DNA of 64,000 nucleotides, taken from NCBI GenBank assembly GCA_013239625.1, contig MU053810.1:1-64000 (forward strand). Reading direction: 5' to 3'. Each line of letters opens with the position of its first letter. The stretch's first letter is position 1. The notes beneath the pieces were generated by a model. It was not told where the DNA came from. It made no database searches and saw only the letters and a program-made list of their open reading frames with translations. Source of the stretch: Lama guanicoe. Its lineage: Eukaryota. This document shows positions 1 to 31,405 of this stretch, in pieces. A program made the translations under genes and the position numbers.

Positions 1-2295
1 TCAGTGATCACTGGCCTATTTAACTTTGTCATGAATCAATTTTGAAAATGTATACTTTTCCAAAAACAAGTAGTTTTTAAATATTTCTAGCACACTGGCT
101 CATTCTTAAACTTTTTTGATACTTTTTCTTTTAATTTTCTAAATAGTTCTCTACTTGGATTTTTTTTTTTGAAGAACTAGCTCTTGAGTTTATAAAATTG
201 ATTTTAAACTTGGTTGTCTCTTTCAATAAAATTTGAGATTATAGCAAACAGCATCAAAAAAATTTAACCAAACTATGTCATTTCCTTTTTTTTTTCTTTC
301 CCAGGCAAGTCACCTATACCTTGCTTCATTTTTTTCTTCTTCTTCCAATTACATCAATCTACTTCAAAGCTTTTTCCAGCCCCAAAGGAAAGGTAGGTAG
401 AGTCATCCATTCTAAAGTAAAGCAGCCTATGCTATCCATGAACACAGGTCAGTGCTTTCAGCTTCAATAGGAATTTAAAAATTAGTTTACGTGTTCCCTA
501 AAAGATCTTAATTCTTTTAATTAACCCTTTCCAGGTAGTTGTAATTCTGGTTTTCATTTCTTTTGGAATTGGTCACATGGAAGTAAAGTTAGATACTGCA
601 CTTTCTCAGAATCCTCTACTCCTCATAAACTCACCAAATCCTTTTTAAACTGACAACTTCCTAAAATTCCTTTTTTCCACTGTATCTTTTACAATGAAAT
701 GGATAGCTGATACTCCATGTTACCCTGCCCTACATAAATCTTCAAGTTCTGGGACCATTCATTCATTACTTCACAAAATACGATCCCCTATGTTGTAAAT
801 AATGTTAAGAAAGTACATGTTTTTTCAATGTTAGTCCACGTAAGTGTGCTTTTCTACCTTCCTACAAATGTAAGCCCAAAAGGGGATGGAGTGCTAAATG
901 CCACCTCAATCACATGAAAGTTATAAAACACTTTCATCAACATAAAGAACAAATTCTGTTAAATTTGAAGCTAGATATATATTTTATTTGACTTTTCCAG
1001 AAGTGAACTAGAAAATAGACTTAGATCCTTCCTTGGAAAACTGAATTTTATAACCTTCTGGGAGAGTGATAATCATTTTGACCAACAGTTAAGGAGTAAA
1101 CCATTTAAAAACGGTGAATTTCTAAAACAATAACAAAATCTTGCTTATAGTTTCAAGGTCTCCTCAATCACACATTTTAAGTATTCTACTAGCAGTTAAC
1201 GATCATCAAGCAAGTAAACACCTCATCACTAACTACAATGACAAAAGTGCAGAATGACACACACTTCTGTTCCTGAGGGAGAAGAGAGGAATCTTAAACG
1301 CTTTTATCTCGTCATCAATCAGCTTTTTAAAAGAAATATCTGGCTTTTTTTTCTCTCTCTTTTAAAATCTAAAGAAGTTGGCTGTTGAAAACTATTAATT
1401 ATAATTATCACTGTGCTCAAAAATACCTAGGGAAAAATTAATGCGAAAGAACATTGTTACTGTTCAATTAAAGAATACAAAGATTTTTCTTCATAAGAAA
1501 CACAAACCCGATGATATCCAAAAAAGACAAAATAGAGTAAAACAAAAGACCGTGACCATTTTCCCTAAACAAACAACCAAATGCTCTGGTGACTTTTTTC
1601 ACAATGTTGATGTTTCCGATGCAACAGTGCCATCAGGTGGTATACCATGCTAACAGATTTCCCAAAACTCATTTTTTCATTTTTCAGCAAGGGGAAGGGG
1701 GTCCAATTAGAGAGTCCCTCACAAAAACTGCAGCAAACGCTCCTAAGAGCTGGATCAGGAAAAGCTGGTCAAGATTCAAGTGAAGCACCCACCTCTGAAG
1801 AGTATTCTGAACATCCAACCATCTGCTAAAATGTGGCTAAAACCATATGGCTTCAGAGTCACAAAGCCAATACCAGGTTCGTCTGTCTAAAACCAGTAAC
1901 TAAGAGACTCTTAGGTACTTTCCCCGATTATGACTGACTTTAGACGTGGAAGTCTGATTAGCTGCGGGAGACTTCAGAGGTCCCGGGAATGCCCCATATT
2001 TTGATCTAGGTGGTGGGTACACACATGTACGTAAGATATAAGCACTTCATGTGAAATTTCAATTATATGTGTGGATAATTATACTACATGTATTAACTAC
2101 AGAATATGTAAATATATAAGGGGATTTATAGTAGATTTCATTTCTGTGGAGTCCTTCAAATTAATAGGCCAAGAGATACCATGTCTTCTGAGATTTTTTA
2201 AACCACTATTTATTTAATGAAGGAAGAACACAATGGAAAATTATAGTAATGCATCAGATCAGGCCATTAAGAATTGTAAAGACGGAATAAATCAA

Positions 2296-3285
2296 TTTAA
2301 AAAACTTTTGTGCTGTAAATGATACCAAGAAAATGGAAAGACAACTCACAGAATAAAAGAAAACATTTGTAAATTGTATCTGATAAGGGACAGTACAAAG
2401 AATATAGAAAAAACTCACAACTCAATAATAAAAAGACAAATAACAACTTTAAAAGGGGTAAGGGATTTGAGCAGTTTTCCAAAGACGTACAAATGGCCAA
2501 TAAGCACATGAAAAGATGCCCAAAATCATTAGCCATTAGGGAAATGCAAATCAAACCCTCAATGAGACAGAGATGTCACTTCACAGTCACTAGGACAGCT
2601 ACGATCAAAAAGGGACAGTGACAAGTGTTAGTGAGGATATGGAGAAACTAGAACGTTCATACATTGCTGTTGGGAATGTAAAATGGTGCAGGCACTGTGA
2701 ATAACGGTGTACTAACGGTTTAGCAGTTACTAAAAACATTCAACATAGTTACCATATGACACAGCAGTTCCACTCCTAGGTATACACTCAAGAGAACTGA
2801 AAACATGTCAAGAAACTTACACACAAAGAGTCACACCAGAATTATTCATAACAGTTAAAAAGTAGAAACAACCCAAGTGTCCATCAAATGACAAATGGGT
2901 AAACAAAATGTGGTATATCTATACCGTGAAATATTATTCAGCCTTAAAAAGGAAGGACATTTTAACACATGCTACAACATGGATGAATCTTGAAAACATA
3001 CTAAGTGAGAGAAGGCCACATATTTTATAACTTTACTTACAGGAAATACCCAGAATAAATCCACAGAGATTAAAAGTAAATTACTGGTTTCTCAGGACAA
3101 GAGAGTGGGCAGGGAGGGAATGGAATTGCCTGCTAATGGATATAAGATTACTTCTAAGAGGAAGGAAATGTTTTAGAAAATTTTATTGTTGTGATAGTTG
3201 CACATACTTAGAACACTAAACTGTACACTTCAAATGGGTGAACTGTATGGTTTTGTGAATTATATCCCAACAAAACTTTATTTTA
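2296..3285 (+). mobile_element. Old LINE-1 3' fragment (L1MB/L1MC-like; ORF2 end plus 3' UTR)
   Basis: Typical L1 motifs: 'caaatggccaataagcacatgaaaagatg', 'ccatatgacacagcagttccactcctaggtata', 'aaacaacccaagtgtccatc', and the 3' end 'ctgtacacttcaaatgggtgaactgtatgg'. Subfamily is a guess. Confidence 0.85.
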
Positions 3286-4042
3286 AAGATAAGAACTGTA
3301 AAGAACCTTAAAAAGTTACCTAGTTTGGCATTTCCTAAACCAAACTATACAGATTAGGTAAGACAGCTAAATTCTCTACCACAAATACATATATATGAAA
3401 CCTTCGGGGCCTCACAGTCATAGGGCACTCAGGTGACTATCAGATAATTCATTCTGGTTTTTCTGGTCACCCAGGCTGGATGGGCTAAACGGACAAGTAG
3501 GGAATCCTGGCCAGAGAGAAGAACAACGACACTCCCTAGGATTCATGGCCTTTGGAGGGATAAGGAGGGGAGGAAATGCCACACAAAAAGGGAGGCACCC
3601 CTCTTTCAAAAACGTTTGTGGAATGTTCATGAAAACTATACAATAGGCCACAAGAAAAATTTCAAAATTATCCAAAAACTAAAACTAACATTATTCTCTA
3701 GTCACAGTGCAAGAAAAATATGAATTATTAATAACCAAGCTGGAAAACAAAAGTCCCACTACCTGGAAATTTCGAGCCTCTCTCAAACATCTCCTTAGGT
3801 AACAATGGAAAAATAAATTAAAATTGAAGAATTTCTAGAAAACATAAAAAGAGAAATCACTACATGTCAGAACTAAGAGAGACAGCGAAAACCAAGGTCA
3901 GAGGATACATTAAATGCCCCTCAAAAGAGACAAAGGAATAAAAGAAAAGAAGAACAAAATAAAGGTAAGAAGAAAATAACGATAAAAGTCAAAATAATGA
4001 ATAAGAAAACAGTAGAATACATAAGTAATCTAGAAGCTGGGC

Positions 4043-29730: not shown

Positions 29731-31230
29731 ATGCGTTGGTTGTTTCCAGTTGAAGGAGACAGAGAACGACTGAGAGAAACCTTGACTTGGAATCTAGTGC
29801 GTCTATCAAGATAGTGAGTGAGTGGATCCAGAGTTGTAATGGGCAATAGCTCTGGTTTTCCGAGTCCACGGAGCAGCATTAAGGATATTTGGAATGACCA
29901 TGACCTTGGTCTGCAGACTCACTTTTAGCTCTTGAGATCATGTGACTGAGAAAGAAAACAGTAAGTTCCACAGAAGGGCGTTCGTAAGCTCACAGCAACA
30001 CATGTTTTCCATAGTGAAGCCAGACTAAGTTTAGAATACATGGCATGCTTTGTGTTGGCTTGGGTGGTTTGGCTAGATTAAGTTGATTTTTTTTTTTAAT
30101 TGCTGGAGAAGTGCAGTTTCTAAATAAAGTCGGCAAGGAGTGAGACAGTACCTTCTTGATACAGAGAAACTTAGATTTTTCATGTCTTTAGGGAAAACTT
30201 TGGGAACCCAGGTAAAACTATTAAACAAAAAGATCTGATTTTCCAAAGAAAAAGAAGAGCCGGAGTACTTAAGAAAACATTATTTTCTTTTCTGATTTTA
30301 TCATGAGCTACAGTTCTGTCCACTGGCTCTGGTGGTCAGCCAACTCTTTTCATCTTTTGCTCTGACATATTTACAAAATGTTAGGGCAGAAATGCAGAGT
30401 CAAATGGTAATCTGACAGGTTTGTTTCATGGGGCTGTGTTGCCCTGACATATATTGACAACTGCATACAAATCATTTCTCTTTTCTGACACCCACTGAGA
30501 AGAGAACAGATACCCGTCTGTGTCAACAGGAGAAGGGGGGCCATGGAGACTCACTGGTGAGCCCCACGTGCCCCTTTGGCCTTTGGGCTGGAGTGTAAAC
30601 TAACTCCTGTCTCTCGTTTTTCTTTTCTTTATCTTACCAACGGGCTCTCTATGCCAGGGCTCTGTAAAACTGTTAACTTTTACACTGCACTCACTCTGCC
30701 AGAACTTCACTTTTTTCTGTGTGATCCTTACCCACCTACAAAGTGAGGTGCTAGTGTCATCCTCTTTTGATAGACTGTAGTACTAAAACTTAGAGAATTG
30801 AAGAAATCCCTTTCGTTTCGGACAGAAGAGATGTAGCAATGGCAGGACTTGGACCCAGGTCATTAAAACTGGCCTGCCTTTCACCAAGGAACAGGGAGCA
30901 GTCCCTCTGTGAGAAGGAAGACCACTTGAGAAATTGGCAAATAGAGAAACACACATGCACACCCTCCCCCACCTCTCACCCCCAGCTCCCATTTTGAAAA
31001 CGTTTAAGGATGAACTCAAGCAGGATGAGGCAGAGAAACCATTAGAAATAGTAACTCCTCTGCTGAAAGCAGTGGGAGGGGGAAGCAGTGTTGTTTAAAA
31101 ATAGTAACTCCTCTGCAGAGGTAGTATTGTGTAATTGGCAACATTGTCACAGTCTTCTCTGACTTGACTCCAGATGGTCCAACCCTTCCCTGTCCAGTTT
31201 ACAGCTGTTTTTTTTTCTCTTTTCCATTAG

Positions 31231-31405
31231 GATGGATGAAAATTATAACCTCTTGCCTCATGGAGTCAATTTCCAAGATGCCATCTTTCCTGACACTCAA
31301 GAAAACAGAAGGATGTTTTCCAGCCTTTTCCAGTTTTCCAACTGTTCCCAAGGGCAGCAGCTGGTGACTTTCTCCAGTGACTGGGAGATCCAAGAAGACA
31401 ATAGG
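31231..31405 (+). CDS. CCDC3: CCDC3 coding exon 2
   Basis: 175 bp with tttccattag acceptor and AGG|gtaaga donor; MDENYNLLPHGVNFQDAIFPDTQENRRMFSSLFQFSNCSQGQQLVTFSSDWEIQEDNR, in frame with exon 1. The coiled-coil exon was not seen in the window. Confidence 0.96.

Follow-up and report, generated by a model that had tools for sequence, protein, structure and literature searches.

The left 21-23 kb of contig MU053810.1 of the guanaco, Lama guanicoe, is proposed to be a real, decayed duplicate of pieces of UPF2 and USP6NL (probability about 0.85), and we incline towards its having arisen in one replication-repair event, probably with two template switches among donors close together on one chromosome. 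The window, which is the whole 64-kb stretch of DNA analysed, contains from left to right a UPF2 fragment on the minus strand, a USP6NL fragment on the minus strand and the intact start of CCDC3 on the plus strand (Table 1). The exons of both fragments carry lesions and lack their neighbour exons, and CCDC3 is intact. The initial annotation described three genes compressed into a short interval; sequences of all three are present, but CCDC3 alone is a whole gene and the other two are fragments. Its placement of USP6NL upstream of UPF2 on the minus strand (20845-17600, then 12758-7280; tblastn), with CCDC3 pointing the opposite way, agrees with the exon positions; the frameshift in the UPF2 fragment is not mentioned there.

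Table 1. Features of the window and the evidence on which they were placed.
Feature	Position	Strand	State	Basis
UPF2-derived exon, 86 nt	7280..7365	-	no amino-acid change	tblastn, 29/29 to P0121; AG/GT
UPF2-derived exon, 104 nt	10776..10879	-	one change, N>S	tblastn, splice borders
UPF2-derived exon, 150 nt	12068..12217	-	protein identical to camel UPF2	tblastn
UPF2-derived exon, 199 nt	12560..12758	-	+1 frameshift in A run near 12660; I>M, K>R, V>F	tblastn
Junction 1 interval (UPF2 intron to USP6NL intron)	12759..17358	.		bounded by UPF2 exon and USP6NL intron similarity
USP6NL-derived exon, 121 nt	17600..17720	-	one change, Q>H	tblastn; TBC profile positions 86-119 of 216
USP6NL-derived exon, 49 nt	18529..18577	-	unchanged	tblastn
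USP6NL-derived exon, 110 nt	20736..20845	-	unchanged	tblastn; TBC profile positions 40-69
Junction 2 interval (USP6NL intron to CCDC3 upstream DNA)	20846..27500	.		bounded placement
GC-rich island and CCDC3 5' leader with GCC-type tandem repeats	27501..28058	+		composition
CCDC3 coding exon 1	28059..28432	+	intact	125/125 to alpaca XP_006208970.3
CCDC3 coding exon 2	31231..31405	+	intact	zero differences from alpaca within exon

Exon content and decay of the two fragments

The UPF2-derived exons starting at 12560, 12068, 10776 and 7280, which we take to be exons 5, 6, 7 and 8, respectively, correspond to residues 447-626 of the Bactrian camel UPF2 model P0121 and span 5.5 kb including introns; that at 7280..7365 is the final UPF2 exon within the window. 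No other UPF2 exon scored in the 64 kb by tblastn with seven UPF2 queries, a search that the exons for the N-terminal 446 residues could not have escaped. A true UPF2 locus with a USP6NL insert in an intron is also ruled out, since the 51 kb to the right lack any upstream exon of UPF2. The USP6NL-derived part spans 3.2 kb including introns and corresponds to residues 146-239 of camelid USP6NL, which is 848 aa long (tblastn, E 6e-21 to 3e-5); as first described, it consists of only three internal exons (17600-20845), and none of the others scored in the 64 kb with eight USP6NL queries.

The introns are retained. Read-through proteins of other mammals (P0001, down to 17359; P0123 and P0128) align to the flanking intron DNA, so the copying took place at the DNA level, as had been suggested, and a processed retrocopy is ruled out because every intron is present. 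As in segmental duplications, the copied material forms genomic blocks of at least 1 kb with introns similar to those of other mammals.

The splice borders are AG/GT at all seven acceptors and donors of the USP6NL and UPF2 exons, and the coding sequence carries six lesions in 819 nt (five in 539 nt of UPF2 and one in 280 nt of USP6NL), against none in 549 nt of CCDC3; if errors were spread evenly, such a difference would have a chance of 0.046 (hand arithmetic). The four substituted UPF2 residues are invariant in the fetched orthologues (I in 62/62, K in 54/54, V in 62/62 and N in 63/63). The Q>H site of USP6NL is Q in 114 of 132 fetched proteins, the remaining 18 with H all being named reptiles or birds, and it is Q in the models of four camelid species (alpaca, dromedary, Bactrian and wild camel). 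With a frameshift, five changes at conserved residues and missing 5' exons, the fragments have the features of an unprocessed pseudogene. The V>F change lies in a T run and the frameshift in an A run, both error-prone contexts. The 199-nt UPF2 exon also has S where two camel models carry C, and the camel-type D of the motif PG[D/E]YD, found in 6 of 60 fetched proteins, is present in the UPF2 of the window too. About 0.8% of the non-synonymous sites in the fragments have changed (95% interval 0.25-1.8%, on an approximate count of ~650 sites), and the fragments are ~98% identical to camelid models at the protein level, the UPF2 reference being Camelus models rather than alpaca, none of them full-length. 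No camelid protein model with the changes of the window was found among the matches listed (for USP6NL, the best 120 of 823). Metagenome contigs, searched for USP6NL loci of mammalian origin, gave 80 loci with a best whole-exon identity of 74%, none of use for mapping the junctions.

CCDC3 and the intact genes of other camelids

CCDC3 serves as an internal control for sequence quality: its exons 1-2 equal residues 1-183 of the alpaca protein, with 0 differences over the coding nucleotides. The GC content is 0.73 across 27501-28600, and intron 2 reaches the end of the window, with similarity to isoform exons of cattle, donkey and cat at 32027, 40946 and 41081. CCDC3 as a further decayed copy is ruled out by its identity to alpaca and by the collinearity of intron 2 with other mammals. 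The window contains no N and no satellite or tandem array, and a search of 12000-64000 with Rfam gave a single tRNA-like match, the head of a SINE.

Full-length USP6NL models exist in alpaca and three camels on contigs of 27.7-35.8 Mb, alpaca CCDC3 and alpaca USP6NL lie on contigs of equal size, and camel UPF2 models have the frameshifted exon intact and connected to upstream exons. From these camelid assemblies, the donor copies would be intact elsewhere in the guanaco genome as well. Since the fragments stand without their neighbour exons, keep their introns and bear lesions absent from the intact camelid models, they support a DNA-level mosaic duplication with at least two junctions, as the initial annotation proposed.

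Two old camel UPF2 models (P0121 and P0198) terminate in or at the last UPF2 exon copied in the window, and a dromedary USP6NL model (P0197) terminates in the intron after the last USP6NL exon copied. Breaks at copied exons are expected if assemblies break at the duplicate, hinting that it may be common to camels and guanaco. Gaps or other causes may also break old gene models. Fourteen DNA runs (three species labels, seven studies) contain 0.74-0.78 of the words of 12500-22499, a non-decisive share, since at the divergence estimated for the fragments a share of 0.32-0.86 is expected from the donors alone. The dromedary CNV table on CamDro3 (PMC11513024) has, in its accessible part, no kilobase-scale gain among 40 chromosome 35 regions, which counts against a duplicate.

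Origin of the duplicate and competing explanations

On human 10p14-p13, USP6NL, UPF2 and CCDC3 presumably lie on one strand, hundreds of kb apart. The order listed for the horse in PMC12340361 is CCDC3, CAMK1D, CDC123, NUDT5, SEC61A2, DHTKD1, UPF2, PROSER2, ECHDC3 and USP6NL; in the window the USP6NL and UPF2 exons are 4.8 kb apart in an order reversed relative to that list, so that non-adjacent donors have been joined. Pieces resembling L1 were seen by eye in both junction intervals, and in the first of these one such piece, presumably of the L1 family, terminates near 15740. Around the L1-like and SINE pieces no convincing target-site duplication was seen at the element at 22.25-22.98 kb. 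The A/T strand skew reverses at ~21.4-23.3 kb, which is suggestive only, 44 of 2000 block shuffles within 17-28 kb reaching the statistic. Pfam matched 0 of 256 stop-to-stop frames (at least 36 aa) in three unexplained intervals, a weak test in which two of seven control exons matched, both of USP6NL.

Template switching, which had been put forward as a mechanism, is plausible, with the junctions placed as bounded intervals rather than read against donor DNA. In this scenario, a fork or break immediately 5' of CCDC3 would have invaded an intron of USP6NL, inverted in orientation, and copied ~4-10 kb before a switch to intron 4 of UPF2, from which 12.8 kb or more was copied; intact UPF2 and USP6NL would have remained at their own loci and the copy would have drifted neutrally since the duplication. 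If the decayed duplicate is real, a single origin of this kind is somewhat more likely than not, and the event might also mark an inversion breakpoint. A stepwise origin, by at least two separate duplications or repeat-mediated recombinations upstream of CCDC3, possibly at an inversion breakpoint or in a multi-copy duplicon, is possible but rather doubtful. It would suit the uneven distribution of lesions and the L1-like pieces in both junction intervals, but chance alone could produce a 5-to-1 split over such lengths and both donors come from one neighbourhood in one orientation. In two CamDro3-era dromedary models (2 of 98 fetched proteins) the first USP6NL exon occurs as a five-residue variant, absent from the window and from a newer dromedary model, which may be a further copy or an assembly fault.

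An assembly chimera, in which true UPF2 and USP6NL pieces were falsely attached to the contig of CCDC3 and the lesions arose as errors of the consensus, is unlikely because of the lesions themselves: two of the six lie in homopolymer runs and no DNA run exceeds a word share of 0.78, but the other four are simple substitutions away from such runs, the CCDC3 of the window shows no error when compared with alpaca, there is no N, and two false joins within 10 kb with matching orientation would be required. A further reading is a camelid counterpart of USP6 at its origin or its demise, with a spliced USP6NL-UPF2 transcript driven by the GC island, a duplicate marking a camelid chromosome 35 rearrangement and CCDC3 cut from its distal promoter, which we consider very improbable; with the frameshift absent, such a transcript would encode a fusion with both TBC catalytic motifs, and with it present the RNA derived from UPF2 would be subject to nonsense decay itself. 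Hardly credible is a working chimeric gene read leftward from the CCDC3 GC island, with USP6NL TBC exons spliced in frame to UPF2 exons as in USP6. The third USP6NL exon does join the first UPF2 exon in frame and all splice borders are intact, but a phase match occurs by chance in ~1/3 of cases and intact splice sites are likely anyway at <1% divergence (~0.8 chance over 28 nt, hand arithmetic). The frame across the fusion closes after 130 codons, 86 nt ahead of the next exon junction, and a stop well before an exon junction is a typical target of nonsense decay. Furthermore, the window covers no more of the TBC profile than positions 40-119 of 216, it yielded neither a first exon nor a start, and the changes hit invariant residues. 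Six RNA or RNA-guessed runs contain 0.05-0.24 of the words of 12500-22499 (exons <5%), which is not evidence of transcription. A dead duplicate is retained as the preferred reading.

Known systems and implications for camelid genomes

Primate duplicon mosaics are known mosaic segmental duplications. The guanaco duplicate resembles such mosaics and unprocessed pseudogenes in its intron-bearing fragments out of order, its high protein similarity to the intact camelid models and its decay by frameshift and substitution; it differs from the mosaics in being small, with two donors from the same neighbourhood, beside an intact single gene and with no satellite or tandem array. FoSTeS/MMBIR, a replication-based template switching, likewise joins segments of nearby loci with a change of orientation, a likeness known here from the exon layout. 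Hominoid USP6 is reportedly a chimera of TBC1D3 and USP32. According to PMC6920530, TBC1D3 arose from USP6NL by segmental duplication. The window is similar to TBC1D3 and USP6 in that TBC-domain exons of USP6NL were duplicated at the DNA level and stand in frame ahead of exons of another gene, but it has the middle of the TBC domain only, no start exon was found and the frame closes early, all judged from sequence. PMC13751797 describes blocks of alpaca DNA rich in pseudogenes, with NEK10-, FMN2- and ATF5-like copies, and the UPF2-USP6NL duplicate is not among the blocks named in the available portion of that paper. The accessible text and 11 supplement files of the dromedary CNV paper do not mention the three genes, and the available parts of a South American CNV preprint, of the VicPac3.1, cytogenetic map and Mezayen papers and of the supplement of a satellite paper contain nothing on the locus. 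We found no description of the duplicate in the open-licence literature, and the type of structure is well known.

A partial copy ~98-99% similar to its donors would attract reads and create false variants in UPF2 and USP6NL, and a false loss-of-function call would be possible in UPF2, an essential decay gene. The duplicate likely confuses camelid gene annotation and may explain why the older camel UPF2 and USP6NL models break at exactly the copied exons. If camels and South American camelids share it, it would provide a lineage marker that can be dated, and chromosome 35 would have a candidate breakpoint there.

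Exon anatomy of the copied fragments

The fragments of USP6NL and UPF2 lie to the left of CCDC3, and the tblastn coordinates confirm the arrangement given in the initial annotation, with three USP6NL exons in under 10 kb ahead of UPF2 on the minus strand and CCDC3 on the plus strand. The USP6NL exons correspond to residues 146-239 of the 848-residue protein and the four UPF2 exons to residues 447-626 of Bactrian camel UPF2 (model P0121), to which one exon is 100% identical; no further exon of either gene scored by tblastn over the whole 64-kb window. AG/GT is present at every border of the USP6NL, UPF2 and CCDC3 exons. 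The introns flanking the USP6NL and UPF2 exons match read-through proteins of other mammals, so both pieces are genomic copies, as the proposal of DNA-level copying had it. The window also contains three copies of a tRNA-derived SINE, presumably Vic-1; together with the UPF2 exon identical to Bactrian camel and the match of CCDC3 to alpaca, these mark the DNA as camelid.

Exons of USP6NL, UPF2 and CCDC3 in the window
Feature	Position	Strand	Method
USP6NL exon, first copied	20736-20845	minus	tblastn with fetched proteins
USP6NL exon, second copied	18529-18577	minus	tblastn with fetched proteins
USP6NL exon, third copied	17600-17720	minus	tblastn with fetched proteins
UPF2 exon, first copied	12560-12758	minus	tblastn
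UPF2 exon, second copied	12068-12217	minus	tblastn
UPF2 exon, third copied	10776-10879	minus	tblastn
UPF2 exon, fourth copied	7280-7365	minus	tblastn
CCDC3 exon 1	28059-28432	plus	tblastn with fetched proteins
CCDC3 exon 2	31231-31405	plus	tblastn with fetched proteins

Both the UPF2 and the USP6NL fragment show sequence decay. One extra A lies in the 199-nt first UPF2 exon, which also carries I>M, K>R and V>F at positions invariant in 62/62, 54/54 and 62/62 fetched orthologues; N>S in the third affects a residue invariant in 63/63. The third USP6NL exon encodes H at a position that is Q in the alpaca model and in three camel models. H recurs in 18 of the 132 proteins fetched, every one from a named reptile or bird; the query itself carried H, which biases this list. 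Five changes in ~650 non-synonymous sites amount to 0.8% (0.25-1.8%); alpaca and camel USP6NL show 11 differences in 848 residues. Counting against decay, homopolymer runs hold two of the six lesions, and the UPF2 lesions were judged against Camelus only. CCDC3, with 0 differences from alpaca CCDC3 over 183 residues, serves as an internal control against a sloppy consensus.

Junctions and origin of the mosaic

The outgroup strands of these genes and their neighbours are assumed here. The order in horse is CCDC3, CAMK1D, CDC123, NUDT5, SEC61A2, DHTKD1, UPF2, PROSER2, ECHDC3, USP6NL (available part of PMC12340361), and chicken keeps the same neighbourhood genes within 1 Mb (PMC6356198, in part); the window order departs from this and needs two junctions, which bears out the earlier claim of at least two. 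Junction 1 is bounded to 12759-17358 and junction 2 to 20846-27500. The A-over-T skew is +0.07 to +0.09 across both fragments and -0.05 from 23 kb onward; its flip at ~21.4-23.3 kb, reached by 44/2000 block shuffles within 17-28 kb with eight intervals picked by eye masked (49/2000 unmasked), is only suggestive of junction 2. Where the skew flips, an L1-like 3' piece whose 5' part is inverted (22250-22980, recognised by eye) could sit at junction 2; a search for its target-site duplication found none convincing.

We infer that the mosaic arose in a single replication-repair event during which the template switched twice. Starting upstream of CCDC3, synthesis would have jumped in inverted orientation into a USP6NL intron and from there into UPF2 intron 4, after which the copy would have decayed neutrally. 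A single event is favoured because both donors neighbour CCDC3 in outgroups and because the two pieces, each an internal fragment that retains its introns, point the same way. Stepwise duplication is a possible but less probable origin, and a putative inversion breakpoint would be compatible with either. That the contig is an assembly chimera is unlikely: the window has 0 N bases. Of the 24 listed sequencing runs, 14 (three species labels, seven studies) hold 0.74-0.78 of the sequence words of 12500-22499, which is no proof of the junctions because the donors alone would give 0.32-0.86. A metagenome search returned no mammalian locus.

A working chimeric USP6NL-UPF2 gene is very improbable. 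The end of the third USP6NL exon and the start of the first UPF2 exon share a phase and would splice in frame, but intact splice sites are expected anyway at such low divergence; the frame closes after 130 codons, 86 nt ahead of the next junction, the TBC domain is limited to positions 40-119 of 216, and a start exon was looked for and not found. TBC1D3, derived from USP6NL via segmental duplication (PMC6920530, in part), is alike in anatomy, whereas in the window copy the test for an open frame across the fusion failed. Three runs that are RNA or guessed to be RNA (X15-X17) hold 0.23-0.24 of the words of the mostly intronic 10 kb; carried-over DNA, pre-mRNA or a transcribed duplicate may account for this.

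Donor genes in camelids

Full-length USP6NL models exist in alpaca, dromedary, Bactrian and wild camel, where they lie on contigs of 27.7-35.8 Mb, and camel UPF2 models have the copied exons intact and attached to upstream exons. The two older camel UPF2 models both terminate within or at the final exon of the window's copy, and one older dromedary USP6NL model ends in the intron after the last copied exon. The older dromedary USP6NL models P0056 and P0197 differ at five amino acids of the first copied exon (2/98 fetched proteins), a variant missing from the newer dromedary P0192 and from the window; it may represent another, diverged copy or a fault of assembly. Assemblies behave in this way at a duplicate, which hints that camels have it too, but gaps could have the same effect. 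The available part of a dromedary CNV table (CamDro3, PMC11513024) lists no kilobase gain in 40 chromosome 35 regions, which neither helps nor refutes the duplicate.

CamDro3 chromosome 35 is presumably not collinear with human 10p, through either real inversions or scaffolding faults. Its genes lie at 1.4 (OPTN), 5.4 (ITGA8), 7.3 (ST8SIA6), 9.2 (MYO3A), 9.8 (ABI1), 11.9 (C10orf67), 14.2 (PLXDC2), 18.6 (KIN) and 22.4 Mb (WDR37) (MOESM9 of PMC11513024, in part).

No published description of the UPF2-USP6NL-CCDC3 arrangement was found in the open-licence literature searched, and no look-alike of the mosaic in the other genomes scanned. Alpaca chromosomes 11, 17 and 36 have duplicated blocks rich in pseudogenes (PMC13751797, in part); structures of this kind are already known.

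CCDC3 and its first exon

Matches to isoform exons of cattle, donkey and cat follow one another in the expected order along CCDC3 intron 2, so the gene lies in its native surroundings. Intron 1 contains a 60-nt direct repeat (29036-29095 and 29650-29709, offset by 614 nt and 82% alike) that probably arose long ago by local duplication, and the 5' region an imperfect GCC/GCT tandem repeat (27643-27778) in which length polymorphism is possible. In pangolin (Manis javanica), models P0229 and P0245 combine CCDC3 exons 1-2 with a kinase that bears the name TAO1-like, which suggests an independent partial duplication or fusion of CCDC3. Short CCDC3 isoforms of human (P0388), bat (P0395) and cat (P0343) begin with the methionine of exon 2, which implies that an alternative first exon exists; in human we take it to lie far upstream, near OPTN. 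Since the duplicated block occupies the expected upstream position, camelids may have lost or displaced this distal first exon.
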